Positions 18,818 through 56,788 are shown, counted from the stretch's first letter. The stretch: 64,000 nucleotides of DNA from an uncultured Candidatus Saccharibacteria bacterium (GCA_964652615.1 CAZZAT010000001.1:284337-348336); one strand, 5' to 3'. Notes: generated from the letters alone by a model not told the origin. Made by a program: numbers and translations.

Positions 18818-19243
18818 ATGGAGTACCAAGTTCCTCAATTTATCGAGGTTGAAGATAAGATTTTTGGACCGCTTACCTTAAAGCAGTTCATCTATCTTGC
18901 TGGAGGCGCAGGTCTCTGCGTCGTGCTTCTGCTCTACCTTCCATTTTTCTTTGGCGTACTGCTTGCAATACCGGTAGCCGCTCTCTCTCTTGCGCTTGCG
19001 TTCTATAAGATTAACGGGAAGTCGTTCGTTGAAATGATGGAATACGGCTTTAACTATCTTATAGGGAAGCGCCTGTATCTCTGGAAAAAGGTTAAGGAAC
19101 CGGTTGTGCCGGCAGCAACGCCCGCAGAAACACTAGGAGGAGCCCCCGCCATAGCTCCGAAAGAGGGGTTGTCTCGAAGAAAGCTTGAAGACCTTGCGTG
19201 GGCACTTGATGTAAAGACTGACCGCGACCAAACCATTACGTAG
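18818..19243 (+). CDS. PrgI/VirB3-like small membrane protein
   Basis: MEYQVPQFIEVEDKIFGPLTLKQFIYLAGG followed by two TM helices; immediately precedes VirB4. Confidence 0.5.
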   Translation: MEYQVPQFIEVEDKIFGPLTLKQFIYLAGGAGLCVVLLLYLPFFFGVLLAIPVAALSLALAFYKINGKSFVEMMEYGFNYLIGKRLYLWKKVKEPVVPAATPAETLGGAPAIAPKEGLSRRKLEDLAWALDVKTDRDQTIT

Positions 19244-19247
19244 CCCT

Positions 19248-19883
19248 ATGCCCGAAGCAAACCCAACACAAGCATTCGTTCCCGTAAAAGAAGTCCGTAA
19301 TGGCATTATCATCCTGAAAGACGGAGGGTACCGTGGCGTGCTTATGTGCTCCTCATTAAACTTCGCCCTAAAATCAGAAGATGAGCAGCGCGCCATCATT
19401 GGAGGCTTCCAGAACTTCCTTAATACGCTCGATTTCTCGGTTGAGATAGTGGTGCAGTCTCGCCGCATGGATATACGCCCCTATCTTGCGTTCCTTGAAA
19501 CACTAGAGCCGACCCAGAAGACTGACCTTATGAAGATACAGCTGCGCGAGTACATTCAATTCATTAAGAACTTCATTGAAGGCTCCGACATCATGACGAA
19601 GCTCTTCTACGTCATCGTGCCATTTAACGCAGCCCCAGGAACAGAAGTCGCAAGCGCTCTGCCGTTTCTCCAAAAGAAACCAGAGAAAGCCACTGCAGGA
19701 CTCTCTGGCTCTTTTGAAGAGCATCGTATTCAGCTTGAGCAGCGCATGGGACTCGTGTCTTCCAGCCTTATGTCAACAGGATTACGGGCGGTACCGCTTG
19801 GAACCGAGGAGGTGATAGAGCTTTTGTACCGCTCGTTCAATTCGGGGGATATAGGAGGTCCGATACAACTTACTGAAAAATAA
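19248..19883 (+). CDS. VirB4-like protein, N-terminal domain fragment (split gene)
   Basis: Ends 1 nt before the VirB4 ATPase ORF, in a different frame; the two ORFs together make about 819 aa, the length of a normal VirB4; junction lies at an A5 homopolymer. Confidence 0.5.
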   Translation: MPEANPTQAFVPVKEVRNGIIILKDGGYRGVLMCSSLNFALKSEDEQRAIIGGFQNFLNTLDFSVEIVVQSRRMDIRPYLAFLETLEPTQKTDLMKIQLREYIQFIKNFIEGSDIMTKLFYVIVPFNAAPGTEVASALPFLQKKPEKATAGLSGSFEEHRIQLEQRMGLVSSSLMSTGLRAVPLGTEEVIELLYRSFNSGDIGGPIQLTEK

Positions 19884-19884
19884 T

Positions 19885-21711
19885 ATGGCTCTTCTTGATT
19901 TTCTAAACAAAAAGCATAAGGATGCACAAGCTTCTACGGTCGTTGCGCCGGTGCTTCCGCAGGATATCTATGCGGAAGGAGCGCTCTCTCTTGCGGACAC
20001 CATCGCTCCCGCAGCTTTGAAGGTAAGCGCTAAAGAAATCACGCTTGGCGAGAAGATGTCGCGTACCTTCTATACCATCTCCTACCCGCGCTACCTTACT
20101 GACAGCTGGTTTACGCCGGTTGTAAATATGCCGCAGGTTTTTGATGCATCTATTTTCATTCATCCAGTAGATACAGCACAGGCGCTCCGAGGCTTCCAAC
20201 GAAAGGTAGCCGAGGTACAAAGCCAGATTTCGGAGCGTGCAGAGAAGGGGCTTGTGCGTGATCCGATGCTTGATACTGCCTACCAAGACCTTGAGGCGCT
20301 ACGCGATAACCTCCAACAGGCACAGGAGCGGCTCTTTGATGTAGGCCTCTACCTCACCATATACGGCGACTCGAAGGAGCATCTCGATAAGATTGAAGCG
20401 GAGGTGCGCGGCATACTCGACTCAAGGCTTATCTACACGAAACCTGCTCTCTTTCAGCAGGAACAGGGTTTTCGTTCAACGCTTCCGCTTGCAAACGATG
20501 AACTTGCCGTACATTCGAAGTTAAACTCTTCTCCTCTTTCATCAATCTTCCCATTCGTTTCCTTCGACCTTACAAGTGACAAGGGTATTCTCTTTGGTGT
20601 TAACCGCCACAACGCCTCTCTCATTCTCTTCGACAGGTTTTCACTTGAAAACTACAATTCAGTCGTGTTTGCAAAGTCTGGTTCCGGTAAGTCCTATGCG
20701 GTGAAGCTTGAGATTCTCCGCTCGCTTATGTTTGGAACGGACGTGATTGTTATCGACCCTGAACGCGAGTATGAGTACTTAGCAGAAGCTACCGGCGGAC
20801 GCCTCTTCAACATCTCGCTCTCTTCAGAACACCACATCAATCCGTTTGACCTTCCGCCGGTCAAAGAAGACGAGACGCCTTCTGACATTCTTCGCTCAAA
20901 CATCATTAATCTCGTAGGTCTCTTCCGCATCATGCTTGGCGGCCTTACTCCTGAAGAAGACGCCATTGTCGACAGGGCGATAACCGAGACCTATGCTTTG
21001 AAGGACATAACGGGGGATAGAGACTTTAGCGGTATCGAAGCGCCTCTCTTGTCTGACTTTGAGAACGTACTTTCGGGCATGGCAGGGTCCGAGTCTCTCG
21101 TCGCGCGGCTTTCAAAATACACCCGCGGTACGTGGGCAGGCTTTATGAACCAACCGACAAACGTCGACATCGGGAAGCAATTCATCGTCTTCTCGGTGCG
21201 CGATATGGAAGACGAGTTGAAACCGGTTGCTATGTACATCGTCACGCACTACATATGGAATGCGGTGCGGCGCGATTTGAAAAAGCGCATTCTTGTTATC
21301 GACGAGGCGTGGTGGATGATGAAGTCGGAAGATACTGCTTCCTTCCTCTACAGCCTCGCCAAGCGCGGCCGCAAATACTACCTTGGCGTCTCAACCATAA
21401 CGCAAGACGTTGAAGACTTCCTGAAGAGTCCGTACGGAAAACCTATTCTCACAAACTCCTCAATACAGCTTCTCTTGAAGCAATCGCCCACAACTATCGA
21501 CCTCTTGAAGGACATCTTCAATCTTACTGAAGAAGAGAAGTTCCTTCTTTTGGAGTCTGGGGTGGGAGAGGGCTTGTTCTTTGCGGGCTTGAAGCACGTT
21601 GCCATAAAGATAGTGGCTTCCTATACCGAAGACCAGATTATTACGTCAGATCCATCCCAGCTCCTTGCTATTAAGCGGGAAAAACAACGCCTTGAAATGG
21701 CGAAGGAATAG
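19885..21711 (+). CDS. VirB4/TrbE-family type IV secretion ATPase (C-terminal part)
   Basis: Walker A VVFAKSGSGKSY, Walker B ILVIDEAWWMM, VIDPEREY, TQDVEDF. Confidence 0.8.
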   Translation: MALLDFLNKKHKDAQASTVVAPVLPQDIYAEGALSLADTIAPAALKVSAKEITLGEKMSRTFYTISYPRYLTDSWFTPVVNMPQVFDASIFIHPVDTAQALRGFQRKVAEVQSQISERAEKGLVRDPMLDTAYQDLEALRDNLQQAQERLFDVGLYLTIYGDSKEHLDKIEAEVRGILDSRLIYTKPALFQQEQGFRSTLPLANDELAVHSKLNSSPLSSIFPFVSFDLTSDKGILFGVNRHNASLILFDRFSLENYNSVVFAKSGSGKSYAVKLEILRSLMFGTDVIVIDPEREYEYLAEATGGRLFNISLSSEHHINPFDLPPVKEDETPSDILRSNIINLVGLFRIMLGGLTPEEDAIVDRAITETYALKDITGDRDFSGIEAPLLSDFENVLSGMAGSESLVARLSKYTRGTWAGFMNQPTNVDIGKQFIVFSVRDMEDELKPVAMYIVTHYIWNAVRRDLKKRILVIDEAWWMMKSEDTASFLYSLAKRGRKYYLGVSTITQDVEDFLKSPYGKPILTNSSIQLLLKQSPTTIDLLKDIFNLTEEEKFLLLESGVGEGLFFAGLKHVAIKIVASYTEDQIITSDPSQLLAIKREKQRLEMAKE

Positions 21712-24389: not shown

Positions 24390-25631
24390 ATGCGGCGCGT
24401 CTTCCTTATCATCCTCGCAATCATAGTTCTGATAGGTCTTGCGCTTGGCATCTATATGCTTTTCTTCTCTGCAAAAGCCCCTGACTTTACTGCAAACCCT
24501 GGATCTTTTGGTACGGGAGGAGAGTATGTTCCAGGAGAGTTCGGAGAGCCCGGAGAAGGAGAAGTGGGAGAAACTGAAACTGAAGCAGGAGAGGAAGTCG
24601 CGCCACGACTTGTAAAGATAACAGACGGTCCAGTTGCGTTTGGTTCAGTTGCTTTCACTACTGAAGAAGTAGTTGAAGGAGAAACAGTTGGCTCAACCAC
24701 TGCAAGTTCTACAGTGGTGTATGACACGGAAGTGCGCTATGTGGAGCGGTTAAGTGGAAACGTGTACGGCTACAAAGCACACGAGCGTACATTAACGAGA
24801 ATCTCAAACCGCACGCTTCCTGGCGTCTATGAAGCATCATGGCTTTCTGATGGTTCCACTGTATATGCGCGCTTCCTTACAGAAAGTGGTGCTGGAGATG
24901 AAGTGCTTGAAACCTATGCGCTTCCCGTACAGGAAGGGGAGGGTGGCTATTTCCTTGAGCCAAACATAGCGGAAGTTGCTGTGCGCGGAACAACGACAGT
25001 AGCAACACTTCTTCCAAGCTCAAGTGGCTCTCTTGCAAGCGCGTCTTCTGCAGATGGCGCAACGGTACGTACACTCTTTACTTCTTCTCTTTCAGCACTC
25101 CAGCTTCTTGCTTCGAATGTAGGGTACGCAGCGTACACAAACGCTTCAGCGCAGTCAGGAGGGTACGGGTTTTTGATAAGTGAGACCGGTGTATTTGAGC
25201 GTTTGGTTGGCCCGCTACGCGGCCTTACGCTTCTCCCAAGTCCTTCGGGTTCCTATGTGTTTTATACCTACCTTTCTGGAAGCACACTTCGTTCCGAACT
25301 TCTTGAAACCACATCTCGCGTCTCTACAACCATTCCTCTTGGCGCCCTTTCAGAAAAATGTGTCTGGGCTCCTGATGAATCAAGCATCTATTGTGCTGTG
25401 CCACGTTCGGTTTCAGGCACGCTTCCTGATGACTGGTACCAAGGTGTTGTTTCTTTCTCGGACCGCATATGGAAAGTCGATCTTGGCGCACGAGTGGCTG
25501 TTCTTGTTGTAGATCCACTAAACGCAGGGGGAGTGGCTATTGATGCCGTGAATCTTGCGATAGATCCGCGTGAAGATACGCTTGTATTTACAAACAAGAA
25601 GGATGATTCTCTTTGGGCGTACGACCTTTAG
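24390..25631 (+). CDS. Membrane-anchored hypothetical protein, Gly/Glu-rich linker plus probable beta-propeller-like domain
   Basis: N-terminal TM; GEFGEPGEGEVGE linker; last gene of the operon, convergent with yidC. Confidence 0.45.
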   Translation: MRRVFLIILAIIVLIGLALGIYMLFFSAKAPDFTANPGSFGTGGEYVPGEFGEPGEGEVGETETEAGEEVAPRLVKITDGPVAFGSVAFTTEEVVEGETVGSTTASSTVVYDTEVRYVERLSGNVYGYKAHERTLTRISNRTLPGVYEASWLSDGSTVYARFLTESGAGDEVLETYALPVQEGEGGYFLEPNIAEVAVRGTTTVATLLPSSSGSLASASSADGATVRTLFTSSLSALQLLASNVGYAAYTNASAQSGGYGFLISETGVFERLVGPLRGLTLLPSPSGSYVFYTYLSGSTLRSELLETTSRVSTTIPLGALSEKCVWAPDESSIYCAVPRSVSGTLPDDWYQGVVSFSDRIWKVDLGARVAVLVVDPLNAGGVAIDAVNLAIDPREDTLVFTNKKDDSLWAYDL

Positions 25632-26359
25632 GTCGAAGCTACGGTAGGGGTTTTGTGAAGGAAGCGTACAAGAAACTCTTGACCTACCATAAAGAGGCTT
25701 GAGGCAGAGAAGTAGAGGGCAATAGCTCCTGACGTAAGAGCAAAAGCGCCAATAAGAAGGGGGAGGATAAAGCGAGCTTGAAGCGCCATCGCGCGACCAA
25801 ACTCTTCCATAGTCGTTGCGGTGCCATTTGTATTCTTTGGCGGAACCGGAATGACGTACCACGCCTGTATGAACTGGGTTATGCCCGCAACAAGCGCAAG
25901 GACAATACTCATGCCTGCAACAGAGAAGACGCCGAGAAAGAGTGGGTTTACTGCCTCAGGGAGTGGAATAAATGAGTAGAGGAGGGAAGGATCAAGCGCT
26001 GTTGTTACCGCCCCTTGGCAGACGAAATAGAGGCCAAAAACAATAGGAATCTGCACAAAGAGCATAAGAATGCTTGCAAATGGTTTTACGCCTCGCTCTT
26101 TATAGAGAGCAAACATTTCACGAGCCTGTTTTTCCTTATCATCCTTGTATTTTTCGCGAAGCGCTTTCAGCTCCGGCTCTATGACTTTCATAGCCTTTTG
26201 CGTCTTTGCAGCCTCAAGAGAGAGGGGGAGGAGAACAAACTTCACTGCGAGCGTTACCCCTATCACTGCAAGTCCAAGGTCTCCACCTGGAATGATGTCT
26301 ATAAAGAAGACGAGGAGGTTATGAATGGGGAGATAGACGAGTGTGTGAAAAAGTTCCAT
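25628..26359 (-). CDS. yidC: Membrane protein insertase YidC (short form)
   Basis: 243-aa polytopic protein downstream of rnpA in the canonical rpmH-rnpA-yidC order; conserved ...KALREKYKDDKEKQAREM... Confidence 0.85.
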   Translation of the reverse strand: MELFHTLVYLPIHNLLVFFIDIIPGGDLGLAVIGVTLAVKFVLLPLSLEAAKTQKAMKVIEPELKALREKYKDDKEKQAREMFALYKERGVKPFASILMLFVQIPIVFGLYFVCQGAVTTALDPSLLYSFIPLPEAVNPLFLGVFSVAGMSIVLALVAGITQFIQAWYVIPVPPKNTNGTATTMEEFGRAMALQARFILPLLIGAFALTSGAIALYFSASSLFMVGQEFLVRFLHKTPTVAST

Positions 26360-26371
26360 AGCGACACTTGA

Positions 26372-26677
26372 TTATACTCGAGCGAGAAGGGTTTCCAACT
26401 CCTTCTTGAGCTCGCTAAAGGGGAGGGAAGGGGCGCCACTTCGTGCGTAGGCGATAATCGCCTTCGTGTGTGGTCCGCGCTTTAACACCTCAAGCATACG
26501 GCGCTTCATAAGATGGCGGTCTACAGAACGCTTTGCGACTTTCTTTGATACCACTGCAGAAAAGCCTGTTCCTTGGCTATAGGAAAGGGAGAAATGCTCG
26601 CTTATAAGGCGTTTTTTGGCTTGTAGGACCTTTGGAAACGCTTCCCTTGTAAGACGGAGCTTTTTGGGAAGGGTCAT
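26372..26677 (-). CDS. rnpA: Ribonuclease P protein component
   Basis: Basic 101-aa protein; position between rpmH and yidC. Confidence 0.8.
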   Translation of the reverse strand: MTLPKKLRLTREAFPKVLQAKKRLISEHFSLSYSQGTGFSAVVSKKVAKRSVDRHLMKRRMLEVLKRGPHTKAIIAYARSGAPSLPFSELKKELETLLARV

Positions 26678-26689
26678 TGACTACACTCT

Positions 26690-26842
26690 TTAGCGGCGAG
26701 GCTTTGAAACCGTGAGGGTCTTGCGGCCTTTGCGGCGGCGGCGAAGGAGTACGTTCTTGCCGGTAGGGCTCTTGGTGCGGGAAAGGAAGCCGTGCGTCTT
26801 GGCGCGCTTTCTCTTTTTTGGCTGATAGGTTCGCTTTGGCAT
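26690..26842 (-). CDS. rpmH: 50S ribosomal protein L34
   Basis: [46 protein letters not shown] from the internal ATG at 26842. Confidence 0.8.
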
Positions 26843-26852
26843 AGAAATGTGT

Positions 26853-26870
26853 TGTGGACTCTTATCCACA
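26853..26870. promoter_or_regulatory. Inverted pair of DnaA boxes (TGTGGAC / TTATCCACA) in the rpmH-dnaA intergenic region
   Basis: TGTGGACTCTTATCCACA; perfect consensus box TTATCCACA at 26862-26870, about 70 bp upstream of the dnaA start. Confidence 0.6.
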
Positions 26871-26940
26871 GGATAATAACAGGTTCTCCACCGCCACGCA
26901 ATGATTCGCAAAAGACCGTACTCGCGTATACTACAGGCTC

Positions 26941-28287
26941 ATGAACCGCTCTGATCCACACGAGCTTTGGGAGCACCTTCTTTCGCAGGTAGAACTTTCT
27001 ATTTCAAGCGCAAACTTCAATACCTGGTTTCGCGAGAGTCACATTGTAAAAATAGAGGAGGGAATCGTATATATAGGCGTTCCAAGCCAGTTTTTTAGAG
27101 ATTGGTACCAGAAAAAATTCCATCAACTTCTCCTTAAGATACTGCGTGCTGTTTCATATGAGTACCGGAATATCGAGTACGTCATCGTTAAAGATGCAAG
27201 AAAGCCTCGTACCGAAAAGAAAAGGGAGCAAAACAACCAAGAACTACCGCTCGATGAGTTTTACATTAATAAGAGCGACAATCTAAACCCTCGCTATACG
27301 TTCGAAACGTTTGTTATTGGTTCCTTTAACGATCTTGCGGTAAAAGCCGCTGAAGCTGCCATCAGGCGGCCTGGTATTACCTATAACCCGCTCTTTATTT
27401 ATGGAGAAACTGGCCGTGGTAAGACGCACCTTATTCAAGCTATAGGCAATCAGTACAAGAAACTCTACCCCGCACGCAAAGTCTATTACTTAACGTCTGA
27501 AAAGTTTGCTGTTGAATACACCGATGCGATGCAGCAGGGAACAGGGAATCGCTTTAAGGAAAAGTACCGTCAGTACGATCTCCTTATCATTGATGATGTG
27601 CAGTTCTTCTCAAAGAAAGATAAGACGCAAGAAGAACTCTTCCACCTCTTCAATGCGCTTCATGACAATAACCGTCAGATTATTTTCTCAAGCGACAGAC
27701 CACCACAAGCTATTCCTGATATAGCAGACAGGCTGCGCGGTCGGTTCCTTTCAGGTATGACAGTTGATATTTCTGAACCTGACGTTGAGTCGCGTGTAGC
27801 TATTGTTCGTAAAAAAGCAGCGCTTCATGGAGTGCTTCTTGGAGATGAGGTGGTTGAATATATCGCAACGAACGTTTCAGGTTCTATTAGAGAGCTTGAG
27901 GGGGTTATTAATAGTCTTGTCTGCCATGCGCAGGTAAAAGGCTCTGCTCCTGATATTGCTGAAGTGCGGCAGTCGCTTCGCTCATTCTCCAGACCTACAA
28001 AGACTGTTTCTGTAAAGAATGTAGTGTCTAAAGTTGCCGAGTTTTACGGTATCGATGAAGAGAGTATTTATGAAAAGACACGAAGAAGGGAGGTGGTACG
28101 ACCGCGCCAAGTCATTATGTATCTTCTTCGAGAAGACTTTTCTGTGTCCTATCCAACTATCGGTACCAAGCTCGGCGGACGCGATCACACTACCGTCATT
28201 CACTCGTGTGAGAAGGTGAAGCGGGAAGTGGTTGATGATGCAGAACTTGCAAAAGAAATACAGGATATTCGCGGGCTGTTAGTATAA
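26941..28287 (+). CDS. dnaA: Chromosomal replication initiator protein DnaA
   Basis: AAA+ motifs GETGRGKTHL, LLIIDDVQF; C-terminal DNA-binding helix ...YPTIGTKLGGRDHTTV. Confidence 0.95.
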   Translation: MNRSDPHELWEHLLSQVELSISSANFNTWFRESHIVKIEEGIVYIGVPSQFFRDWYQKKFHQLLLKILRAVSYEYRNIEYVIVKDARKPRTEKKREQNNQELPLDEFYINKSDNLNPRYTFETFVIGSFNDLAVKAAEAAIRRPGITYNPLFIYGETGRGKTHLIQAIGNQYKKLYPARKVYYLTSEKFAVEYTDAMQQGTGNRFKEKYRQYDLLIIDDVQFFSKKDKTQEELFHLFNALHDNNRQIIFSSDRPPQAIPDIADRLRGRFLSGMTVDISEPDVESRVAIVRKKAALHGVLLGDEVVEYIATNVSGSIRELEGVINSLVCHAQVKGSAPDIAEVRQSLRSFSRPTKTVSVKNVVSKVAEFYGIDEESIYEKTRRREVVRPRQVIMYLLREDFSVSYPTIGTKLGGRDHTTVIHSCEKVKREVVDDAELAKEIQDIRGLLV

Positions 28288-28499
28288 CTGTGGAAAACAT
28301 ATGAAAAACTTCCGTAGAGCGCTGGGGATACTAAAGAAGGAAGTGGTTATAACTCTGCGTTCTGTATTTTCTATCAACACAAGTGTTTTTACTTCGACTA
28401 TCTTTTCCCCACGTTATTACGCATACACCCTTCAAGAAAGTGAGTATCTAGGAGGTAAAACAAAGTTATCCACGTATTAACAGCATTAATAGTATTCAT
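28288..28499. promoter_or_regulatory. Candidate oriC: AT-rich dnaA-dnaN spacer with DnaA boxes
   Basis: TGTGGAAAA (28289-28297), TTATAACCAC-like, TTATCCACG (28467-28475), AT-rich stretch 28360-28500. Confidence 0.55.
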
Positions 28500-29597
28500 A
28501 TGATTATTTCAATAGATAAAAAAATACTAGGAGATGCAGTAAATACTGTTTCTAAGTTTTCTGAACGAAAAGTACTTTCTCTTCCTGCGCTTTCAGGAGT
28601 GGCACTTGAAGCAGGTGAAACTATTACGCTTCGGGCCACAAACCTTGAGACGGGGATAGAGCTACATATTGATGGTTCAGTGCGTTCAAAAGGCGGCGTG
28701 GCGCTCCCTGCGTCTATTTTCCGCGATATAACCGCATCCCTTTCAGGAAACGGATCGATAACACTTGAAACGTCTGGAGATACCCTTGCGCTCTCTACAG
28801 ATAAAGGGAAAAGCACGATTAAGACGCTTTCGTATGAGGATATGCCCACCCTCTCGGCTCCAGAAGAAGGAAAGACAACCTTCACCCTTTCAGGAGCAAC
28901 CCTACGCTCTCTTATACAGTCAGTAGCATCCTACGCGTCTCCTTCGACAGTACGTCCTGAACTTGCAAGTATCTTCCTATCAGCTGAAGGAGGTATGATA
29001 AAAGCGGTTGCAACTGATTCCTTCAGGCTTGCGGAGAAGAAAGTATCCGTGAATACAAAACTCTCTCCATTCTCCATGCTTATACCTGCAAAGAATGCAC
29101 TCGATATCATGCAGGTTATTCCAGATTCAGATATTGAAGTGAAAGCAGATGAACATCAATGCGTCTTCATATGGAACTCTGGGCGAGCTGTTACCAGACT
29201 TGTCTCTATGCAGTACCCAGATTACGCGCAGATTATTCCCAAAGCATTTTCTGCGGAAGCGACCGTCCTTAAAAAAGACTTTGAGACAGCTCTCAAAAGA
29301 GCCTCTGTATTTTCAGACTCTTTCCAGAAAGTGAAGCTTGGTCTTGATGCGAAAGGGAAGAAGGTAGCGTTTTCTGCCCGCAATACGGATATTGGAGAGT
29401 CGTCTGAAGATATAAGCGCATCAGCTTCTGGAGAGTCGCTTGAGCTTTCATTTAATCACCGCTATCTTGCAGCCCCCCTTCAAGGAATGACCAGTGAAAG
29501 TATTAGTCTTTCAGCTGCTGGTATAGGGCGTCCATTGGTAGTACGAGGACAAGGAGATCAGTCGTTTTTGTATCTGGTGATGCCAATGAATCAGTAG
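28500..29597 (+). CDS. dnaN: DNA polymerase III beta sliding clamp
   Basis: 365 aa immediately downstream of dnaA; three-domain clamp-like pattern. Confidence 0.9.
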   Translation: MIISIDKKILGDAVNTVSKFSERKVLSLPALSGVALEAGETITLRATNLETGIELHIDGSVRSKGGVALPASIFRDITASLSGNGSITLETSGDTLALSTDKGKSTIKTLSYEDMPTLSAPEEGKTTFTLSGATLRSLIQSVASYASPSTVRPELASIFLSAEGGMIKAVATDSFRLAEKKVSVNTKLSPFSMLIPAKNALDIMQVIPDSDIEVKADEHQCVFIWNSGRAVTRLVSMQYPDYAQIIPKAFSAEATVLKKDFETALKRASVFSDSFQKVKLGLDAKGKKVAFSARNTDIGESSEDISASASGESLELSFNHRYLAAPLQGMTSESISLSAAGIGRPLVVRGQGDQSFLYLVMPMNQ

Positions 29598-32125: not shown

Positions 32126-32605
32126 CTAGGAGGTCTGGGGATAGCGAAGGGAAAGCGCGGCAATGCCGATGCCAATCGCATCGAGTTCATCGTCCAAACG
32201 CTTCTTATGAGGTAGAGCTATAAGCAACGGAATCATGCGAGCCATGGCCTTTTTATCAGCGCGTCCGTCTCCCGTAACCGCAAGTTTTATGGTTCCTGGG
32301 GGGAGTTCGCGCACTTCAAGAGTCTGTGTTCCCGCTACAGCCAGAATTGCGCCCCGTGCTTCAGCAACACCAAGCGCTGTTTTTTTGTTAGTACTGAAAA
32401 AGAGCGTTTCAAGCGCAAGAATGTCTGGAGCGTAGGTGGTAATCGCTTTGGATACCGCCAAAGAAACCGCAGCAAGGCGTTCTTCCTTGTCTCCTTTTGG
32501 CGGCTGTATGCAGTCGCTCCACACAAGCACAGGCTTTGAAGGAGAGCCTTCAAGCACCGCAACACCCATGCGGTCAAAGCCAGGATCAATCGCCAGTATT
32601 CTCAT
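32126..32605 (-). CDS. ruvC: Holliday junction resolvase RuvC
   Basis: MRILAIDPGFDRMGVAVL... with catalytic Asp/Glu; start at the internal ATG 32605. Confidence 0.8.
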   Translation of the reverse strand: MRILAIDPGFDRMGVAVLEGSPSKPVLVWSDCIQPPKGDKEERLAAVSLAVSKAITTYAPDILALETLFFSTNKKTALGVAEARGAILAVAGTQTLEVRELPPGTIKLAVTGDGRADKKAMARMIPLLIALPHKKRLDDELDAIGIGIAALSLRYPQTS

Positions 32606-33143
32606 AGCCGTCAGCGTTTGTGAATACTTCCTGCGTATCGTCATAGTCATCAAGAAGGGTAAGTATTTCACGAAGCTTCTCCTCGTCTTCTCCTACAATC
32701 TGCATCTTCGGATCATTGGGTTCGTACCTCCCTTCAGGAGACTTAGTAAATGCCCACGAGGCACTTCCTGGTGTACCAAGCTCGTATCCATTTTTAGAGA
32801 GCAGATGTTTTATTTCCTGCGTCGTCCTATTCCTGCTATCAGTCACTGCAACGACGATAACAGCGCTTGCGCCAGGGCCGAAGAATTCATACGCAACTTG
32901 TTCAAGTGCTCCAGAGTCTTTGGAAGTACCTTTCGCTACTGCTCGCTCGATACTATCTTTAGGCATATTTGCTGCCTTGGCGCGCGTAATTGCTGCTGCA
33001 AGGGAAGGGGAAGAGGTGTCTCCGGCAACCTTCTTACTTTCAAGAGCTATTTCACGAGCAAATTTAGTAAAGGCTCGACTCTTTGCTGCATCAGTTACCG
33101 CTTTTGCGCGCTTTATTTGGGCCCACTTACTGTGTCCTGCCAT
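32586..33143 (-). CDS. YebC/PmpR-family protein (short, 185 aa)
   Basis: MAGHSKWAQIKRAK... signature N-terminus; conserved yebC-ruvC adjacency. Confidence 0.75.
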   Translation of the reverse strand: MAGHSKWAQIKRAKAVTDAAKSRAFTKFAREIALESKKVAGDTSSPSLAAAITRAKAANMPKDSIERAVAKGTSKDSGALEQVAYEFFGPGASAVIVVAVTDSRNRTTQEIKHLLSKNGYELGTPGSASWAFTKSPEGRYEPNDPKMQIVGEDEEKLREILTLLDDYDDTQEVFTNADGYENTGD

Positions 33144-33245
33144 GAGAGGAACTATAGCAAAAGGTTCGAATCCTAGGATGCCAACTAACTTTTGTGTGCA
33201 AAGAGAAAAGCCTACGCCCTTGCGGGTTTCGGCTCTCTGGAACTG

Positions 33246-33461
33246 TTATTTGTGCTTGAGCTTCGCTTTCACCTCTTCCTTGAAGCGCTCACGGTCTTCC
33301 GCCGGTACGGCGGCAACGTCCGCAGCGAAATCAAGATAGGTGAAGAGGTTGCCTCGCACCATAGATTCAACTTGGCTGTTGCCAACCAGGCTGGCTCGAT
33401 AGAGGTCGAGCGTATGGTCAACGAAGCTCGCGGCAGCTCGCACTTGATCTTCCGTATACAT
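33246..33461 (-). CDS. Hypothetical small cytoplasmic protein (cassette-array gene A)
   Basis: 71 aa; GGAG RBS 8 nt upstream; consensus promoter TTGACA-17-TAATAT upstream. Confidence 0.45.
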   Translation of the reverse strand: MYTEDQVRAAASFVDHTLDLYRASLVGNSQVESMVRGNLFTYLDFAADVAAVPAEDRERFKEEVKAKLKHK

Positions 33462-33487
33462 GACACGTCTCCTGCAGTCCTGGATTA

Positions 33488-33516
33488 ATATTAAGACACG
33501 GTAAACGCTATGTCAA
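33488..33516 (-). promoter_or_regulatory. Sigma-70-like promoter (TTGACA, 17-nt spacer, TAATAT) for gene A
   Basis: Read on the minus strand: TTGACAtagcgtttaccgtgtctTAATAT, directly downstream of repeat copy 1. Confidence 0.55.
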
Positions 33517-33522
33517 TAGCGC

Positions 33523-33551
33523 GGTTCCAACATCGTCCCAGGATGCCAGCA
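33523..33551 (+). repeat. 29-bp conserved element, copy 1 (GGTTCCAACATCGTCCCAGGATGCCAGCA)
   Basis: Manual alignment of the seven copies; followed by hairpin cgacccgc...gcgggtcg. Confidence 0.7.
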
Positions 33552-33607
33552 ACAAAACGACCCGCCGTTCCCTTGCGGTACTTAGCGGGTCGCTCATGCG
33601 TGTTGTC

Positions 33608-33967
33608 TTAGTTCATGGCGTAGTATGCCTTGGTCGCTTCGAAGTACTCATCGGACCAGCGCGGATCGAGGATGAAGACTCCTGTGATCCGCTGCGTGGT
33701 CCGCGTCGCCACGAGCTGTGCCAGGAATCGAGACTCCTGGTCCGTGTTGTCGATGCGGCGGATTTGTCCGTCGGTCGTCGTATAGATGACGCCACCGCAC
33801 TCGTCGATCCGAACCGAGCAACGCATAGCCCATTGCTCGACTTCGTACTCCGTTGCGATGACCGGCCTGAGCCCGTTATCCTGGGCAGCAGGCCGCGTCG
33901 GGTCCGATCCGCATGATGCGAGCGCGAGAAGCGCAGACACCAGAACAAGACTTTTCACATGCAGCAT
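33608..33967 (-). CDS. Putative lipoprotein (cassette-array gene B)
   Basis: Signal peptide with lipobox LALASC; AGGGAG RBS; start at the internal ATG 33967. Confidence 0.5.
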   Translation of the reverse strand: MLHVKSLVLVSALLALASCGSDPTRPAAQDNGLRPVIATEYEVEQWAMRCSVRIDECGGVIYTTTDGQIRRIDNTDQESRFLAQLVATRTTQRITGVFILDPRWSDEYFEATKAYYAMN

Positions 33968-34080
33968 GTGTATCTCCCTTTGCTGATGGGTGGTTGCCCA
34001 CGTGAACGGGTTTCCTAATAAATTATACACAAATATAGATATATGTCAATAACCTAGGTACACAGGCTCTTTTTCTAAAA

Positions 34081-34109
34081 AGTTCCAACAGCGTCCCAGA
34101 CAGCCAGCA
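34081..34109 (+). repeat. 29-bp conserved element, copy 2 (AGTTCCAACAGCGTCCCAGACAGCCAGCA)
   Basis: Followed by hairpin aaaccgcccgac...gtcgggcgggttt plus TTTATT. Confidence 0.7.
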
Positions 34110-34164
34110 TAAAAGAAACCGCCCGACCCAAGGAGCCGAGAGGTTCCTTTTGAGTCGGGCGGGT

Positions 34165-34398
34165 TTATTGCAATTGTGCTTGAACGCGGTCGCAGGGCAC
34201 TTCGACGACAACGTATGAGGCGTTGGCGTGAGCTGTGCCAGGAGCCGTCGTGACGCCGAAGCAGAGTCCGTTGCGAGTATCCTGAACGTAATTCAGGCTA
34301 TCGACAATAGCTTGTGCTCGGGTGTCGCTCGGGCTGCTGGGTTGGCCGCAGCTAGCGACCAAAACGGCCAAGCAGGCTGCAAAAACGAGCTTACGCAT
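34165..34398 (-). CDS. Putative small lipoprotein (cassette-array gene C)
   Basis: 77 aa; lipobox LVASC; GGGAG RBS. Confidence 0.5.
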   Translation of the reverse strand: MRKLVFAACLAVLVASCGQPSSPSDTRAQAIVDSLNYVQDTRNGLCFGVTTAPGTAHANASYVVVEVPCDRVQAQLQ

Positions 34399-34462
34399 GT
34401 CTTTCTCCCAAGGTTCAACTCAAAGTATATGCTACATAGTAACGCTACTTTGTCAATAGCAT

Positions 34463-34491
34463 GGTTCCAACAGCGTCCCAGACAGCCAGCA
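34463..34491 (+). repeat. 29-bp conserved element, copy 3 (GGTTCCAACAGCGTCCCAGACAGCCAGCA)
   Basis: Preceded by tgtcaatagc (reverse complement gives a TTGACA -35 for gene C); followed by hairpin taatctc...gaggatta. Confidence 0.7.
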
Positions 34492-34794
34492 TGGCTTAAA
34501 ACCTAATCTCCACAGACATGAGGATTAGTACTATCGAACTACTTGCATATTTTTAATACCTCGCTATTCTTATCTTTGGAAAGTCTGAAACTCTCTGCTG
34601 GTGACGAACTGGTCTATCAAGCCGCCAGAACGACAGAGAGGAAATGGGAATTGCAGCCCTAACCTATAGCTAAGGTGCCAAATGGGAACCGCGAGGTTCC
34701 AACCGACGCTTAGGGGAGTGCCCCACAACCGTGATCAGCGAGTTAGGGGAGCGCACACGATCCGATAGGATTTTCCGCTCTTTCAACCAATAGC

Positions 34795-34823
34795 CACCCC
34801 ATGCGCGGGGTGGCTAACTTTTT
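34795..34823 (+). terminator. Hairpin plus T5 tract ending a ~290-bp non-coding stretch
   Basis: gccacc-atgcgcgg-ggtggc followed by taacTTTTT. Confidence 0.4.
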
Positions 34824-34830
34824 GCATAAA

Positions 34831-34859
34831 AGTTCTAACTTCGTCCCATTCCCTCAGCA
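34831..34859 (+). repeat. 29-bp element, degenerate copy 4 (AGTTCTAACTTCGTCCCATTCCCTCAGCA)
   Basis: About 20 of 29 positions match the consensus; lies just upstream of the DUF1653 gene. Confidence 0.45.
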
Positions 34860-34879
34860 ATTTGTTAGAATTATTTACA

Positions 34880-35160
34880 TGGAATATAAGAAACTTGATA
34901 CGTCCGTAATCCGCAATCGTATCTATGAGCATTACCGAGGCAATCGCTATGTCGTCGTTGATATTGCAAAGAATGCTGATCTCGACGGAGATGAGTTTCT
35001 GGTCATCTATCGCGCGCTTTATGATCACGGGCAGTTGTACTCAACAGCGCTAGAGCGGTTCACAGGACTCAATAGTGAAGGCACTCCTCGTTTCCGCCTG
35101 GTCGACATCGAAGAGGGGAACCGAAACCCTAATCACGTCTATCCAACGATTACGATGTAG
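34880..35160 (+). CDS. DUF1653-like small protein (cassette-array gene D)
   Basis: IYEHYRGNRYVVVDIAKNADLDGDEFLVIYRALYD...PRFRLV resembles the DUF1653 pattern (hYKG..Y.V...A.HSET.E.LVVY..LY). Confidence 0.55.
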
Positions 35161-35170
35161 TTTGGACAAA

Positions 35171-35199
35171 AGTTCCATAATCGTCCCAGACGGCCAGCA
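35171..35199 (+). repeat. 29-bp conserved element, copy 5 (AGTTCCATAATCGTCCCAGACGGCCAGCA)
   Basis: Followed by hairpin atgcccgg-aatgt-ccgggcat, which also serves as the terminator of minus-strand gene E. Confidence 0.65.
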
Positions 35200-35238
35200 T
35201 CGGCAAAAGAAAATGCCCGGAATGTCCGGGCATTAGTC

Positions 35239-35463
35239 TTAGTCTGTGGCACTCCTGAGTTCAAGGAACCTCTTGGCTTGAGAATACCCACAATCGTAGT
35301 GCTCGTTGCCTTTAAGTTCAAAGTTAGGCTCACGACCATTGTCAGCGTCCTCAGCTCCCATTTGTCGTAGGCGTGCTGGGCTCACTTCAACACCTCTCAT
35401 GTGGTCAAAGACGCCAGTGCAGTTTGTGGGCCTGTCCCACCGACCGGTCTCATGGTTGTACAT
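35239..35463 (-). CDS. Hypothetical small protein (cassette-array gene E)
   Basis: 74 aa; GAGGAG RBS. Confidence 0.45.
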   Translation of the reverse strand: MYNHETGRWDRPTNCTGVFDHMRGVEVSPARLRQMGAEDADNGREPNFELKGNEHYDCGYSQAKRFLELRSATD

Positions 35464-35503
35464 GATGTATCTCCTCTGAAATCAAGAGTACCAGACCTAG
35501 ACT

Positions 35504-35530
35504 GGTTCCAATAGCGTCCCAGACAGCCAG
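35504..35530 (+). repeat. 29-bp conserved element, copy 6 (GGTTCCAATAGCGTCCCAGACAGCCAG, 3' end truncated)
   Basis: Ends 18 bp before the NUDIX gene start; no hairpin follows. Confidence 0.65.
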
Positions 35531-35548
35531 AAACGGTATACTGTTCGC

Positions 35549-36046
35549 ATGAGTGAATATCCAGATAAGCTTGTTTCTTGCAGGACTCTCGATGGAGAGC
35601 TTAAGCAGGTGCGCGTTGGAGACCTTACATTCAGGCCTTCGATATACGGCGTGGCGATAAAAGATAACAAAGTTCTCCTTGTCCCATGTAAGGACGGATA
35701 TGATTTTCCTGGAGGTGGGATCCATGAAGGCGAACCAATGCTTGAATCTCTCGTTCGAGAAGTAAAAGAAGAAAGTGGTATTGAAGTAGAGGTGGGAGAT
35801 ATTCTCTACGCAAAAGACGATTTCTTTATTCATCCACGAAGCCAAAAGGCCTTTCACACCACACTAATGTATTACACGGTAACCCCAGTAGGAGGAGAAC
35901 TTTCCAGCGCGGGACTTACTGAGTTCGAGAAGACTCTTGCTAAAGACCGCCTTCCGGAATGGGTAGACATATCAAAGATTGATAATCTCAAGTTCTACAA
36001 TCCTATAGACAGTCCAGCTCTAGTTCGCAAGGCCTCAAGACACTAA
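35549..36046 (+). CDS. NUDIX hydrolase (cassette-array gene F)
   Basis: Nudix box GGGIHEGEPMLESLVREVKEESGIEV (Gx5Ex7REUxEExGU). Confidence 0.75.
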   Translation: MSEYPDKLVSCRTLDGELKQVRVGDLTFRPSIYGVAIKDNKVLLVPCKDGYDFPGGGIHEGEPMLESLVREVKEESGIEVEVGDILYAKDDFFIHPRSQKAFHTTLMYYTVTPVGGELSSAGLTEFEKTLAKDRLPEWVDISKIDNLKFYNPIDSPALVRKASRH

Positions 36047-36054
36047 GCGAGGGC

Positions 36055-36083
36055 GGTTCCAACTACGTCCCAGACAGCCAGCA
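36055..36083 (+). repeat. 29-bp conserved element, copy 7 (GGTTCCAACTACGTCCCAGACAGCCAGCA)
   Basis: Followed by bidirectional terminator aggcgaggac-taaaa-gtcctcgcct TTCGTTT. Confidence 0.7.
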
Positions 36084-36090
36084 ACATAAA

Positions 36091-36122
36091 AGGCGAGGAC
36101 TAAAAGTCCTCGCCTTTCGTTT
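36091..36122. terminator. Bidirectional rho-independent terminator
   Basis: 10-bp GC-rich stem with T tracts on both strands; between convergent genes F and G. Confidence 0.6.
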
Positions 36123-36360
36123 AACGACGGGTACCGATGAATTCATCAGACAGACGCTTCAGACGCTTACGCGCCCGACGACGACTCCACTTCTTGAACG
36201 TCGAAAGCTTAACATTCAAGGCTTGGCAGCAATGACACCCGTAGGTGTGCTTGCCGTGGCGTGCGCCGCCAGGGTTAGTATCCATCTTCTGCATCTGCCG
36301 AAACACATCAGCCATGAGACTCTCCTTAGGTGAGGTTAGGCTCTCATACTGACTCTCCAT
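36121..36360 (-). CDS. Hypothetical small basic protein (cassette-array gene G)
   Basis: 79 aa; C-terminus very basic (KKWSRRRARKRLKR); CHCC cluster. Confidence 0.35.
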   Translation of the reverse strand: MESQYESLTSPKESLMADVFRQMQKMDTNPGGARHGKHTYGCHCCQALNVKLSTFKKWSRRRARKRLKRLSDEFIGTRR

Positions 36361-36658
36361 GGTTATTTCTGGACAGACCCTACCACATATGTTGGAAATA
36401 CTTCAACAGCACTTTAGGTGTGGTACAGTCGAGCATATGGGTGGATATATTTTCTTAATGGTTCTCATAATGCTCGGCATCGTCGGGCTTCTCGGTCTTG
36501 TCTTTTTGCTTACCAAACCAAAGAAAGGAACGGGAGATCAAACGAAACACACAGTACGCATCTTTTTGTGGCTACCCCTCATTGCCGCAGGACTCTGTCT
36601 CTTGGTGATTATTGGTATAGCTGTGTACACGGTCATGACGGGACCGTACAGTCTCTAA
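36359..36658 (+). CDS. Small two-TM membrane protein (start uncertain, possibly 36437)
   Basis: Two hydrophobic helices (IFLMVLIMLGIVGLLGLVFLL; LWLPLIAAGLCLLVIIGIAVY). Confidence 0.35.
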   Translation: MVISGQTLPHMLEILQQHFRCGTVEHMGGYIFLMVLIMLGIVGLLGLVFLLTKPKKGTGDQTKHTVRIFLWLPLIAAGLCLLVIIGIAVYTVMTGPYSL

Positions 36659-36660
36659 AA

Positions 36661-37662
36661 CTACTGGGCCAAGTATCCACGCCCCTTTTGCGTGAGCAGG
36701 CGTCCGCGAGGTCCTCTCTCGATAAACCCAAGACGAAGGAGATATGGTTCATACACGTTTTCAAGCGTATCTGGGTCTTCATGTAGGGAAGAGGCGAGTG
36801 CGCGGATACCGGCAGGTCCTCCGCGAAATCCTTCCAGAAGCGTTTCAAGATAGCGGCGGTCGTCTTTAGTGAGTCCGAGCGCATCAATGCCAAACAAGTC
36901 GCACGCCTCATCACACACGTCTATCGTAATAGGCACATCGTGCACTTGTGCGTAGTCGCGCACTCTCTTCAAGAGAGCATTTGCAACGCGCGGCGTTGCA
37001 CGGCTGCGCGATGCGAGTGTTCGAACCACATCCTTTTCGATTTCAAGACCAAGAAGTCCTGCAGAGCGTGCAATGATGCTGTGCACATCATCATCGCTAT
37101 AGAAGTCGAGCTGGTAGACGCCACCGCCAAAGCGAGAGCGAAGCGGTCCTGAAATCTGCGCAACGCGCGTCGTAGCGCCTACGAGTGTGAAGCGAGGGAG
37201 TGCAAGCTCTACCGTGCGTGCTGAAGGACCTTTGCCAAGTACGATATCAAGCGATCCATTTTCAAGAGCGGGATACAGCAACTCTTCTATTTTCGTACCA
37301 AGCCGATGTATTTCGTCTATAAACAGCACCGACCCCTCTTCAAGATTAGTGAGTATTGCGGCAAGGTCTGCGGCGCGCTCGATAGCGACTCCTGACGTGC
37401 TTTTAAGCGGTGCGCCAAGCGTCTTTGCTACAAGATGTGCGAGCGTTGTCTTACCCACTCCCGGAGGTCCATAGAAAAGGAAGTGTTCTGGCATGCTGCT
37501 TCGCTTTTTTGCTGCATCAAGCGCGATACGCACATTCGCTTTTACATGTCCTTGGCCCACATACTCATCCCAGAGCGAGGGGCGTAGCGCCGAGTCGAGT
37601 CCCTGATCGCCTTTAAGGGAAGGAGTGTCGTTTTTCGCAGAAGCCTTAGGAGGGGTTGACAT
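36661..37662 (-). CDS. ruvB: Holliday junction branch-migration helicase RuvB
   Basis: LDEYVGQ..., Walker A GPPGVGKTTLA, Walker B LFIDEIHRL, sensor TTR; start at the internal ATG 37662 (the longer 406-aa ORF adds a non-conserved N-terminus). Confidence 0.9.
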   Translation of the reverse strand: MSTPPKASAKNDTPSLKGDQGLDSALRPSLWDEYVGQGHVKANVRIALDAAKKRSSMPEHFLFYGPPGVGKTTLAHLVAKTLGAPLKSTSGVAIERAADLAAILTNLEEGSVLFIDEIHRLGTKIEELLYPALENGSLDIVLGKGPSARTVELALPRFTLVGATTRVAQISGPLRSRFGGGVYQLDFYSDDDVHSIIARSAGLLGLEIEKDVVRTLASRSRATPRVANALLKRVRDYAQVHDVPITIDVCDEACDLFGIDALGLTKDDRRYLETLLEGFRGGPAGIRALASSLHEDPDTLENVYEPYLLRLGFIERGPRGRLLTQKGRGYLAQ

Positions 37663-56031: not shown

Positions 56032-56739
56032 ATGTGGCTTCCGTACCATTTGGGTATGGGAAAGATAGTGCAAAAGCCTAGTAGAGGGGACGTAGAGTGG
56101 TCACCTGATTTTTCCTATGCAATTGGTCTGTTAGCTAGTGATGGATGCGTTTCATCCGATGGACGCCATCTCACACTTGTTTCAAAGGATAGAGAACAGC
56201 TTGAAAATCTCGTCAGATGCTTGCGTTTACACGCGGCAATAAAATCAGACAGGATTCAATGGAGTGATGCGCGTCTGCATAAATTCCTCTGCTCCATCGG
56301 GATATCTCCTCGAAAATCATTAACACTCGGCGCGATAGACATACCTCCCAAATACTTCTTCAACTTTCTTCGCGGTTTATTTGATGGAGATGGAAGCTTT
56401 TACAGCTATTTCGATAAACGATGGCGCTCAAGCTTTATGTTCTATCTCAGTTTTACCTCCGCTAGTCCTGCACACATAGAATGGATACGGACTACGCTTG
56501 AATATAGATTGTGCGTTAAGGGTCATATCTCTAGAGTACCTCCCAGGCATGGAAAGAAAGGATGCGAAACTTTACGATATGCGAAAAGGGAAGCGGTGAA
56601 AATAATGCGTTGTATGTATGCTGGCCAAGGACCCTCATTGTCGCGGAAGCGCTTGAAAATAGAAGAAGCACTGCGTATAGTGGGCGAGTCCCTTAGAGAT
56701 AATGCCCAGGTGTTGAAATTGGTAGACATCATACCTTGA
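56032..56739 (+). CDS. LAGLIDADG-family homing endonuclease (two-motif, free-standing)
   Basis: Motif 1 AIGLLASDGCVS, motif 2 LRGLFDGDGSF; 3' end overlaps tRNA-Leu by 36 nt. Confidence 0.75.
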   Translation: MWLPYHLGMGKIVQKPSRGDVEWSPDFSYAIGLLASDGCVSSDGRHLTLVSKDREQLENLVRCLRLHAAIKSDRIQWSDARLHKFLCSIGISPRKSLTLGAIDIPPKYFFNFLRGLFDGDGSFYSYFDKRWRSSFMFYLSFTSASPAHIEWIRTTLEYRLCVKGHISRVPPRHGKKGCETLRYAKREAVKIMRCMYAGQGPSLSRKRLKIEEALRIVGESLRDNAQVLKLVDIIP

Positions 56740-56788
56740 GGTGGTATGGCCGAAAGGCGTGGAGGTTCGAGTCCTCTCCTGGGCACCA
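56704..56788 (+). tRNA. tRNA-Leu (anticodon GAG)
   Basis: Acceptor GCCCAGG/CCTGGGC, D-loop AAATTGGTAGA, anticodon stem-loop ATACC-TTGAGGT-GGTAT, long variable arm, T-arm GGAGGTTCGAGTCCTCT, CCA encoded. Confidence 0.8.

Follow-up and report, generated by a model that had tools for sequence, protein, structure and literature searches.

A conserved 35-bp element at the boundaries of single-gene units between yebC and ruvB, a possible cassette boundary site of Patescibacteria

The stretch of DNA analysed here, called the window, is 64,000 nt long and comes from an uncultured Candidatus Saccharibacteria bacterium (GCA_964652615.1, CAZZAT010000001.1:284337-348336). Within its ruvB-yebC-ruvC operon, about 6-7 kb from dnaA-dnaN, lies an insertion of 2.9 kb that consists of stacked single-gene modules, each edged by a conserved element of about 35 bp. 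This array, the occurrence of the element in other genomes, and a possible role of the element as a boundary site of mobile cassettes are described below.

The array between yebC and ruvB

Seven copies of the element, all on the same strand, had been given in a preliminary description of this DNA, and all of them were recovered, with 28-mer cores on the + strand at 33524, 34082, 34464, 34832, 35172, 35505, and 36056. A scan of the window with a 17-nt degenerate core (up to 2 mismatches) found the seven copies and a chance-like match at 28646, with 0.39 matches expected from shuffled sequences. When up to 3 mismatches were allowed, the strict 29-mer matched four copies in the window and nothing in shuffles, and a profile hidden Markov model (HMM) built from 252 copies of other genomes found the same seven and no further match. 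Apart from the match at 28646, the degenerate-core scan and the HMM recognized no copy in the remaining ~61 kb of the window. Alignment of the copies with their flanks gave a conserved block with edges as sharp as first described, and conservation is limited to this block. The block of 29 bp first noticed is real, but the conserved element is about 35 bp long and extends further on the 5' side.

An eighth, decayed copy with a 5-nt deletion, designated c0, was identified 18 nt from the yebC start codon, and the array thus begins at yebC. The local alignment of c0 with c1 scored 29, while the maximum among about 2,900 random windows was 28, and the rare AGGATGCCA variant is common to both copies. 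As c0 adjoins yebC, the gene for a 71-aa protein is also within a unit. The array has 8 sites and 7 units of about 330-560 bp (Table 1).

Most units hold one small gene, as previously described, but unit 3 has no open reading frame (ORF). Pfam confirmed the DUF1653 protein and the NUDIX hydrolase, and no family match was obtained for the other cassette proteins of the window. All four minus-strand cassette genes (71, 119, 77, and 74 aa) have a Shine-Dalgarno (SD) sequence, and three of them have TTGACA-16/17-TAnnnT promoters. The DUF1653 and NUDIX genes lie directly 3' of c4 and c6, have no SD, and show a leaderless layout. Hairpins of variable sequence had been reported after five copies and regarded as tied to the element. 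Those after c1, c2, c5, and c7 have their T-run on the minus strand and are intrinsic terminators of converging minus-strand genes, and the one after c3 is weak. The tie to the element was not borne out, and element plus hairpin as a single unit was rejected, because the hairpins occur only with a converging gene, whose terminator they are.

Table 1. Features of the array and its flanks in the window
Feature	Position	Strand	Basis
ruvC, beyond yebC on the left flank	32126-32644		
yebC, 185 aa, left flank	32586-33143	-	
c0, decayed element copy (GGTTCGAATCCTAGGATGCCAACTAAC, 5-nt deletion), left array end	33161-33190	+	local alignment to c1
Cassette gene, 71 aa, no family match; own TTGACA-17-TAATAT promoter (33516-33488), SD	33246-33461	-	
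c1, element copy	33523-33551	+	pattern scans, flank alignment, HMM
Cassette gene, 119 aa, lipoprotein-like (signal peptide, then Cys); promoter 34049-34022, SD, terminator hairpin 33558-33592	33608-33967	-	
c2, element copy	34081-34109	+	pattern scans, flank alignment, HMM
Cassette gene, 77 aa, lipoprotein-like; promoter 34456-34429, SD, terminator hairpin 34116-34165	34165-34398	-	
c3, element copy	34463-34491	+	pattern scans, flank alignment, HMM
Unit 3, no ORF; promoter-like TTGCAT-17-TATTCT; strong + strand intrinsic terminator 34791-34816	34492-34830	+	
c4, element copy, degenerate, 6 mismatches to consensus	34831-34859	+	degenerate scan, HMM (E=4.9e-5)
Cassette gene, DUF1653, 93 aa; leaderless: TGtTAGAAT, hexamer 34866-34871, 7 nt, ATG	34879-35160	+	Pfam
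c5, element copy	35171-35199	+	degenerate scan, flank alignment, HMM
Cassette gene, 74 aa, no family match; SD-led; terminator hairpin 35212-35234	35239-35463	-	
c6, element copy	35504-35532	+	pattern scans, flank alignment, HMM
Cassette gene, NUDIX hydrolase, 165 aa; leaderless: TATACT 35537-35542, 6 nt, ATG	35549-36046	+	Pfam
c7, last element copy of the array	36055-36083	+	pattern scans, flank alignment, HMM
Bidirectional terminator hairpin 3' of c7, common to the NUDIX gene and the 79-aa gene on the minus strand	36091-36115		sequence
Two more small genes in the c7-ruvB interval, no detectable element bounding them	36121-36658		
79-aa gene, c7-ruvB interval	36121-36360	-	
99-aa membrane protein gene, c7-ruvB interval	36359-36658	+	
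ruvB, 333 aa, right flank	36661-37662	-	

Unit 3 folds moderately stably (z=-2.3) and contains a partial element-like GGTTCCAACCGACGC at about 34694. It has no Rfam match and no homolog among the other loci, and it is either a decayed cassette or a small RNA. The two lipoprotein-like genes have a 24-nt stretch of 83% identity in common (33703-33726 and 34220-34243), and these two cassettes may be related to each other. The left flanks of c1 and c3 are alike over about 15 further bases, which take in the -35 box of the upstream minus-strand gene.

The element and its distribution in Patescibacteria

The consensus over 252 unique copies is AnAAAG-GTTCCAACATCGTCCCAGACnGCCAGCA-A, with an A at -6 and AAAG at -4 to -1 forming the 5' extension. 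Information content in these copies is near-maximal within the block and flat beyond it. Core positions mismatch in just 2-15%, within genomes and between genomes alike; positions 17-21, chiefly N, are homogeneous inside one genome and different across genomes. The element, with 59% GC, is intact in genomes of 32-33% GC, where its flanks are AT-rich. Judging from these alignments, it is under sequence-specific constraint across species. Neither a palindrome nor dyad symmetry is present in the element, its inverted arms are no longer than 4 nt, and it does not fold, as the mean minimum free energy of the 252 copies as single-stranded DNA is -1.15 kcal/mol vs. -2.07 kcal/mol for shuffles.

In a scan with one genome per species, the pattern was found in more than 116 stretches, and loci L001-L116 are among the matches listed. 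Nearly all of the element-bearing stretches are from metagenome-assembled genomes (MAGs) of Patescibacteria, Paceibacterota, or Parcubacteria, including one complete genome of Woesebacteria, with GC content of 32-60%. Whether the element is local or widespread can be answered in two parts: it is not private to this locus, but it always lies at gene-unit boundaries, in co-oriented arrays. In the 116 loci, 215 of 216 adjacent pairs are co-oriented, with a spacing of mostly 300-1000 bp. The HMM found 336 copies, which form 122 groups; group size ranges from a single copy to at least 7, and no group is of mixed orientation. Lone, intact intergenic copies were also found, as expected of empty sites. 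In distant lineages, clearly diverged versions of the element (e.g., GCTCCAACACCATCCCACAGCCAGG) are still co-oriented and at unit boundaries; they were located in L125 (about 4290-4330), L130 (821, 1376, 3340, and 4640), L124, and L121. The element family is thus broader than the search pattern used.

Inter-element stretches in the loci examined are 300-1700 bp long and coding, with about one gene per unit (median ORF 132 aa, 75% of the unit). Relative to the element, 115 cassette genes are co-oriented and 77 (40%) are opposite. Co-oriented ORFs upstream end 0-5 nt before the element and those downstream begin 15-25 nt after it; for opposite-strand genes, the room to the element just fits a terminator or promoter. 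According to clustering of 1,242 ORFs, the hotspots have a limited set of housekeeping flanks, namely dnaX/dus, leuS, ABC-F, flavoprotein, and ruvB/PBP1A/pilB.

Among the large genes that flank the arrays, 181 have the orientation of the element and 64 the opposite one (74% co-oriented). The element is directed away from dnaA-dnaN in the window, L066, and L099, and in the window it lies on the side of rising cumulative GC skew. Such agreement with local gene or leading-strand direction would also be given by a polar chromosomal signal (replication, segregation, or transcription roadblock) lying in variable regions by chance. However, copies occur every 300-1000 bp at few hotspots with none in the other ~61 kb of the window, and signals of this kind do not edge exchangeable one-gene modules, which makes this explanation hardly credible. 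The same uniform clusters and empty ~61 kb differ from a DNA uptake sequence, which has high density genome-wide in both orientations.

The element has no match in viral contigs (IMG/VR), phage records (INPHARED), or plasmids (PLSDB), and its phage or plasmid origin was rejected. A tRNA-derived att or dif-like site was rejected on inspection, as neither similarity nor symmetry was seen. At gathering score, Rfam recognized only tRNAs in the window, and with a permissive threshold the region 33150-36700 gave a single chance-level match, on a terminator (E=4). In the literature, no description of the element was found, and nothing relevant on integrons or cassettes of Patescibacteria or on leaderless genes in the Candidate Phyla Radiation (CPR).

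Cassette content, orthologous junctions, and the origin of the arrays

Among the 192 cassettes, 181 are singletons, and 150 cassette proteins represent 48 Pfam families with at most three members each. The sole protein family recurring in arrays is NUDIX, with 14 members in 11 loci of other genomes. The window has a second NUDIX hydrolase gene outside any array (58979-59464). GC content of the cassettes is 45-55% against a background of 50%, which is not decisive.

Three cassettes recur in different contexts. A cassette for a 109-aa membrane protein stands alone between xth and xer in L010, and in L109 it is one unit of a dnaX array; between the left and right elements the two versions are 80-92% identical, and identity falls to background (28-40%) beyond. 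The DUF1653 protein of the window is 86% identical to its counterpart in L098, and nucleotide homology runs from the first base 3' of the element to the stop codon. These two pairs suggest that a cassette has its element at the 3' end, and a crossover near the 3' edge of the element. A 181-aa cassette is common to L095 and L109, with different neighbours. Relatives of DUF1653 from metagenomes are in at least four unrelated neighbourhoods, and those from more distant lineages have visibly diverged flanking elements. Neighbours of homologous cassettes differ in all five comparisons made, and gene orientation relative to the element is kept in five of six homologous pairs.

YebC of this clade (sequences P0001-P0120) is a short form of 185 aa, with 1,944 homologs at E<=1e-40. 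The synteny PBP1A-ruvC-yebC-[array]-ruvB-pilB of the window is present in four other genomes, with 1-5 copies of the element, different genes, and identical element polarity, so that five genomes, counting the window, have arrays of 1-8 sites at the ruvB-yebC junction. One lineage, whose YebC is 74% identical, has an empty junction, with 10 nt between ruvB and yebC. In another lineage, the gap contains 8 kb of other genes and no elements. Identical YebC proteins on many contigs (P0102 and P0011) represent lineages with no elements at this locus. In several relatives, ruvB-yebC-ruvC is a tight operon with genes overlapping or spaced by 10 nt. The proposed accretion hotspot at a place where ruvB and ruvC are normally near is in agreement with these empty or otherwise filled junctions, and an invariant gene set, the alternative raised in the preliminary description, was not seen, as unit numbers and genes differ between relatives.

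With moderate confidence, and on comparative grounds, the ~35-bp element is explained best as the boundary site of mobile single-gene cassettes present throughout the Patescibacteria, from which the array would have accreted within the ancestral ruvB-yebC-ruvC operon. A cassette would consist of the DNA just 3' of one element, with a gene in either orientation and its own expression signals, and of the element at its 3' end. A presumed trans-encoded, sequence-specific recombination enzyme would join two elements. Recombination of the element of a free cassette with a chromosomal copy would lead to insertion with fixed polarity, recombination of two direct copies to excision, and repeated insertion to co-oriented arrays at few hotspots. 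Strict co-orientation despite 40% of reversed genes is expected of polar-site recombination, and a regulatory site does not need it. Considered together, polarity, boundary position, an open pool of genes, empty and filled junctions, and element-bounded homology have a recombination or boundary site as their simplest account. A cassette-accretion hotspot with a shared recombination or regulatory site, as first proposed, is hence supported by co-orientation, variable content, and element-bounded homology; that the exchange is site-specific rather than homologous we infer, and the phylum-wide sequence constraint favours it.

Several observations weigh against cassette mobility by site-specific recombination. 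The nearest relatives (81-82% YebC identity) have one unrelated small gene and no element at the junction, and the hotspot can therefore change without the element. Logan assemblies of the same strain match the window, and they gave no sign of excision products, circular junctions, or strain-level indels. The element lacks dyad symmetry and fold, unlike most sites of tyrosine or serine recombinases and attC. Searches by phmmer with XerD and Hin, which covered every ORF of the window and the 116 loci, revealed no recombinase linked to any array. The type of start tracks gene orientation: in 199 units of L001-L116 and the window, co-oriented genes are leaderless or SD-led in a ratio of 63:29 and opposite genes in a ratio of 8:54 (odds ratio ~15), the latter having their own -35/-10 promoters and terminators. 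The genes starting at 34879 and 35549 vs. those at 33461, 33967, 34398, and 35463 in the window fit this asymmetry. Finally, the -10 box is at a preferred distance after the element. This spacing and the coupling of orientation and start type hint at some transcriptional role beyond the cassette model.

The last two points bear on a purely regulatory explanation, in which the element would be an operator or upstream promoter element of a conserved DNA-binding protein and arrays would arise only from clustering of small accessory genes. About 40% of copies end 5-8 nt before a TG-extended -10 box that is followed by a leaderless ATG, an SD-like motif is found in only 6 of 86 promoter-facing copies, and co-oriented cassette genes are preferentially leaderless. 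Strong constraint is typical of protein-binding sites, and the 74% of large flanking genes co-oriented with elements would fit as well. However, about 60% of copies, conserved equally well, precede an A-rich stretch and then a terminator that belongs to a converging gene, and these copies have nothing to regulate. Array polarity is constant, while gene orientation is not. Furthermore, about 346 ordinary leaderless genes of the same genomes have -35-less extended -10 promoters of the same type with no element, which shows that the element is no component of the promoter. Homology breaks at the element and differing orthologous content are left unexplained, and a purely regulatory role is considered improbable. 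The element as a promoter itself was rejected, as no -35/-10 pair is inside it, and sigma-54-like or extracytoplasmic function (ECF) sigma-like readings by eye have wrong spacing and no conserved -10. Leaderless starts that have a TG-extended -10 box 6-7 nt ahead of the ATG and lack a -35 consensus appear to be common in these Paceibacteria, including at large housekeeping genes. On the minus strand, yebC also looks leaderless (TGCTATAGT, 7 nt, ATG; about 33143-33162).

The missing symmetry and the missing linked recombinase would suit a homologous-recombination adaptor, similar to promoter early stem-loop (PeSL) elements of phages or to minimal mobile elements of Neisseria, in which the element would be a short homology arm with no dedicated recombinase. 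RecA would swap in DNA of relatives between co-oriented copies, unequal exchange would delete or duplicate units, and element uniformity would come from constant exchange, gene conversion, or another role. As a precedent, modules are shuffled by means of PeSL repeats, which also give rise to mini-circles (PMC2839356). Positions 17-21, homogeneous within and different between genomes, are in accordance with concerted evolution, neighbouring copies resemble each other slightly more than non-adjacent copies do, and these bacteria have type IV pilus and competence genes, with pilB and pilM in the window. On the other hand, efficient exchange by RecA usually calls for homology as long as or longer than the 28-35 bp of the element. 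Exchange alone would hardly keep about 25 of 28 positions fixed between such distant classes as Woesebacteria and Paceibacteria over 32-60% GC, where cassette bodies already have the native AT-rich composition, and core positions vary no more between genomes than within. The adaptor explanation is rather unlikely.

An integrase that duplicates its target site, as in CRISPR (clustered regularly interspaced short palindromic repeats) adaptation or with casposons, would also give direct repeats of fixed polarity around inserts of either orientation, as staggered cuts at the element ends would duplicate a ~30-bp target with each insertion. Strict co-orientation with random insert orientation, a repeat length within the CRISPR range, the rare variant in common to c0 and c1, and the slightly greater similarity of adjacent copies (p=0.03) fit this model. 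However, the adjacency effect is very weak (5.11 vs. 5.36 mismatches), and gene-element orientation kept in five of six homologous pairs fits a cassette with its own site. ORF clustering, phmmer, and Pfam revealed no Cas1-like or other integrase and no cas genes near any array. We regard target duplication as very improbable.

As for an enzyme that could act on the boundary site, clustering of the 1,242 ORFs for a linked recombinase revealed housekeeping flanks only. A single orthologous Xer-type tyrosine recombinase is present in 843 kb of loci and the window, 31 kb from the array here, and its score is 139.8 against the integron-integrase cut-off of 265. Its gene in the window (1687-2595) adjoins xth, and the protein passes the XerA-type NCBIfam cut-off and is below those of XerC, XerD, and IntI. 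In L010 (3783-5142), a single element-bounded cassette occupies precisely the interval from xth to the 3' end of the orthologous xer, a place where the window has no element.

The Logan assemblies (L117-L120), contigs with an identical YebC or NUDIX protein, were made independently from three runs; their identity to the window is 100% or 99.97%, and all of them break at c2 (34084-34111) with a 28-nt overlap. This break probably reflects further copies of the c2 variant elsewhere in the genome or community. Assembly breaks at elements mean that arrays are expected to be fragmented or absent in MAGs in many cases.

Relation to known systems and other genes in the window

Integron arrays, in particular sedentary chromosomal ones and clusters of attC sites lacking integron-integrases (CALINs), resemble the arrays most. 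Both have a co-oriented repeated site between single small genes mostly of no known function, ORFs that end at or within the site, and an open, diverse pool of genes (NUDIX, GNAT, HAD, toxin-like, and lipoproteins). Content differs among relatives and the orientation of chromosomal arrays is non-random in both. The attC sites are recognized by their folded structure, with imperfect inverted repeats R''-L''/L'-R' and little sequence conservation (PMC2727003). In contrast, the element is conserved in sequence, unfolded, and opens with GTTCCAA, in which CCA at the RRR positions does not agree with the GTTRRRY core. No IntI was found in the 116 loci and the window; since CALINs also have no IntI, this is not decisive alone. 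Integron ORFs are mostly promoterless, while here 40% of genes are reversed and cassettes have their own promoters. Several arrays per genome at housekeeping hotspots and a host phylum of Patescibacteria are further differences. The system works most like an integron array or CALIN, yet it lacks the attC fold, the GTTRRRY core, and IntI.

Other systems share fewer features. Minimal mobile elements of naturally competent bacteria such as Neisseria are junctions between conserved genes that hold different genes in each lineage and need no internal repeat. They are alike in having different genes at one housekeeping junction, but here a conserved element bounds each unit. PeSL of T4-type phages consist of a sigma-70 promoter and a terminator stem-loop and act via homologous recombination (PMC2839356, PMC4122927). 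In both cases, a conserved short non-coding motif recurs between small non-essential ORFs of no known function, and the variable regions alternate with core genes, with modules reshuffled among relatives. Unlike in PeSL, the -10 box (40% of copies) and the terminators are outside the element and cassette-specific, and the element is conserved phylum-wide rather than in one phage group, with no viral matches. In dif modules of Acinetobacter plasmids, the pdif (XerC/XerD) sites are ~28 bp long with two inverted 11-bp arms and a 6-bp spacer, in alternating orientation (PMC6449649, PMC13141974). Xer/dif-type sites in general have inverted recombinase-binding arms of ~11 bp and a spacer of 6-8 bp. 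Small accessory modules, sites of ~28 bp, no module-encoded recombinase, and a presumed housekeeping Xer are similar, and an Xer-type gene is in the window, but the element lacks inverted arms, its copies are direct repeats throughout, and the arrays are chromosomal. CRISPR, with repeats of 23-47 bp, non-coding spacers of ~26-72 bp, and cas genes, differs from coding units at a spacing of 300-1700 bp with no cas seen. Repetitive extragenic palindromic sequences and bacterial interspersed mosaic elements (REP/BIME) or miniature inverted-repeat transposable elements (MITE), which are palindromic or have terminal inverted repeats and a target-site duplication, differ as the element has no palindrome or fold, and the only inverted repeats of the region are terminators. 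The early exclusion of CRISPR, REP, and canonical attC was therefore correct.

A tentative suggestion, to which we give somewhat less weight than to the boundary site itself, is that Patescibacteria have their own system of cassette capture, parallel to integrons in function and molecularly unrelated to them, with a polar non-palindromic site and a trans-acting enzyme or an RNA-guided or strand-specific mechanism. The chance that this is a categorically new recombination system is substantial. The genomes of CPR/Patescibacteria are very small, these bacteria are believed to depend on hosts and DNA uptake, and their gain and loss of accessory genes is poorly understood; through a cassette system, these episymbionts with minimal genomes would draw on one pool of accessory genes common to the whole phylum. 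A searchable 35-bp marker edges hundreds of single-gene modules, so the flexible gene pool can be catalogued from metagenomes, and two direct copies are a concrete substrate for finding the enzyme and mechanism. If the exchange is site-specific, cassette capture arose separately from integrons, at an asymmetric unstructured site that could be a possible genome-engineering tool. If it is homologous, the element would be a phylum-wide universal adaptor for modular gene exchange, and that too would be new.

Other genes of the window were annotated as well. A free-standing LAGLIDADG_3 protein of 235 aa (E=5e-12) is encoded downstream of rplS (region 56032-56788); it was considered as a linked enzyme and rejected, as no relatives are near other arrays. 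The 3' end of its gene overlaps by 36 nt a tRNA-Leu(GAG) gene (56704-56788), which was predicted by ARAGORN and is absent from the Rfam gathering list. The origin neighbourhood (25628-29597) contains yidC(-), rnpA(-), dnaA(+) at 26941-28287, and dnaN(+) at 28500-29597, and the minimum of cumulative GC skew is at about 22-24 kb. A type IV secretion/conjugation-like set of PrgI (18818-19243), TraC-like (19248-19883), and VirB4/DUF87-like ATPase (19885-21711) genes lies within a few kb of the origin region, in a run of unannotated + strand genes (about 13-24 kb).

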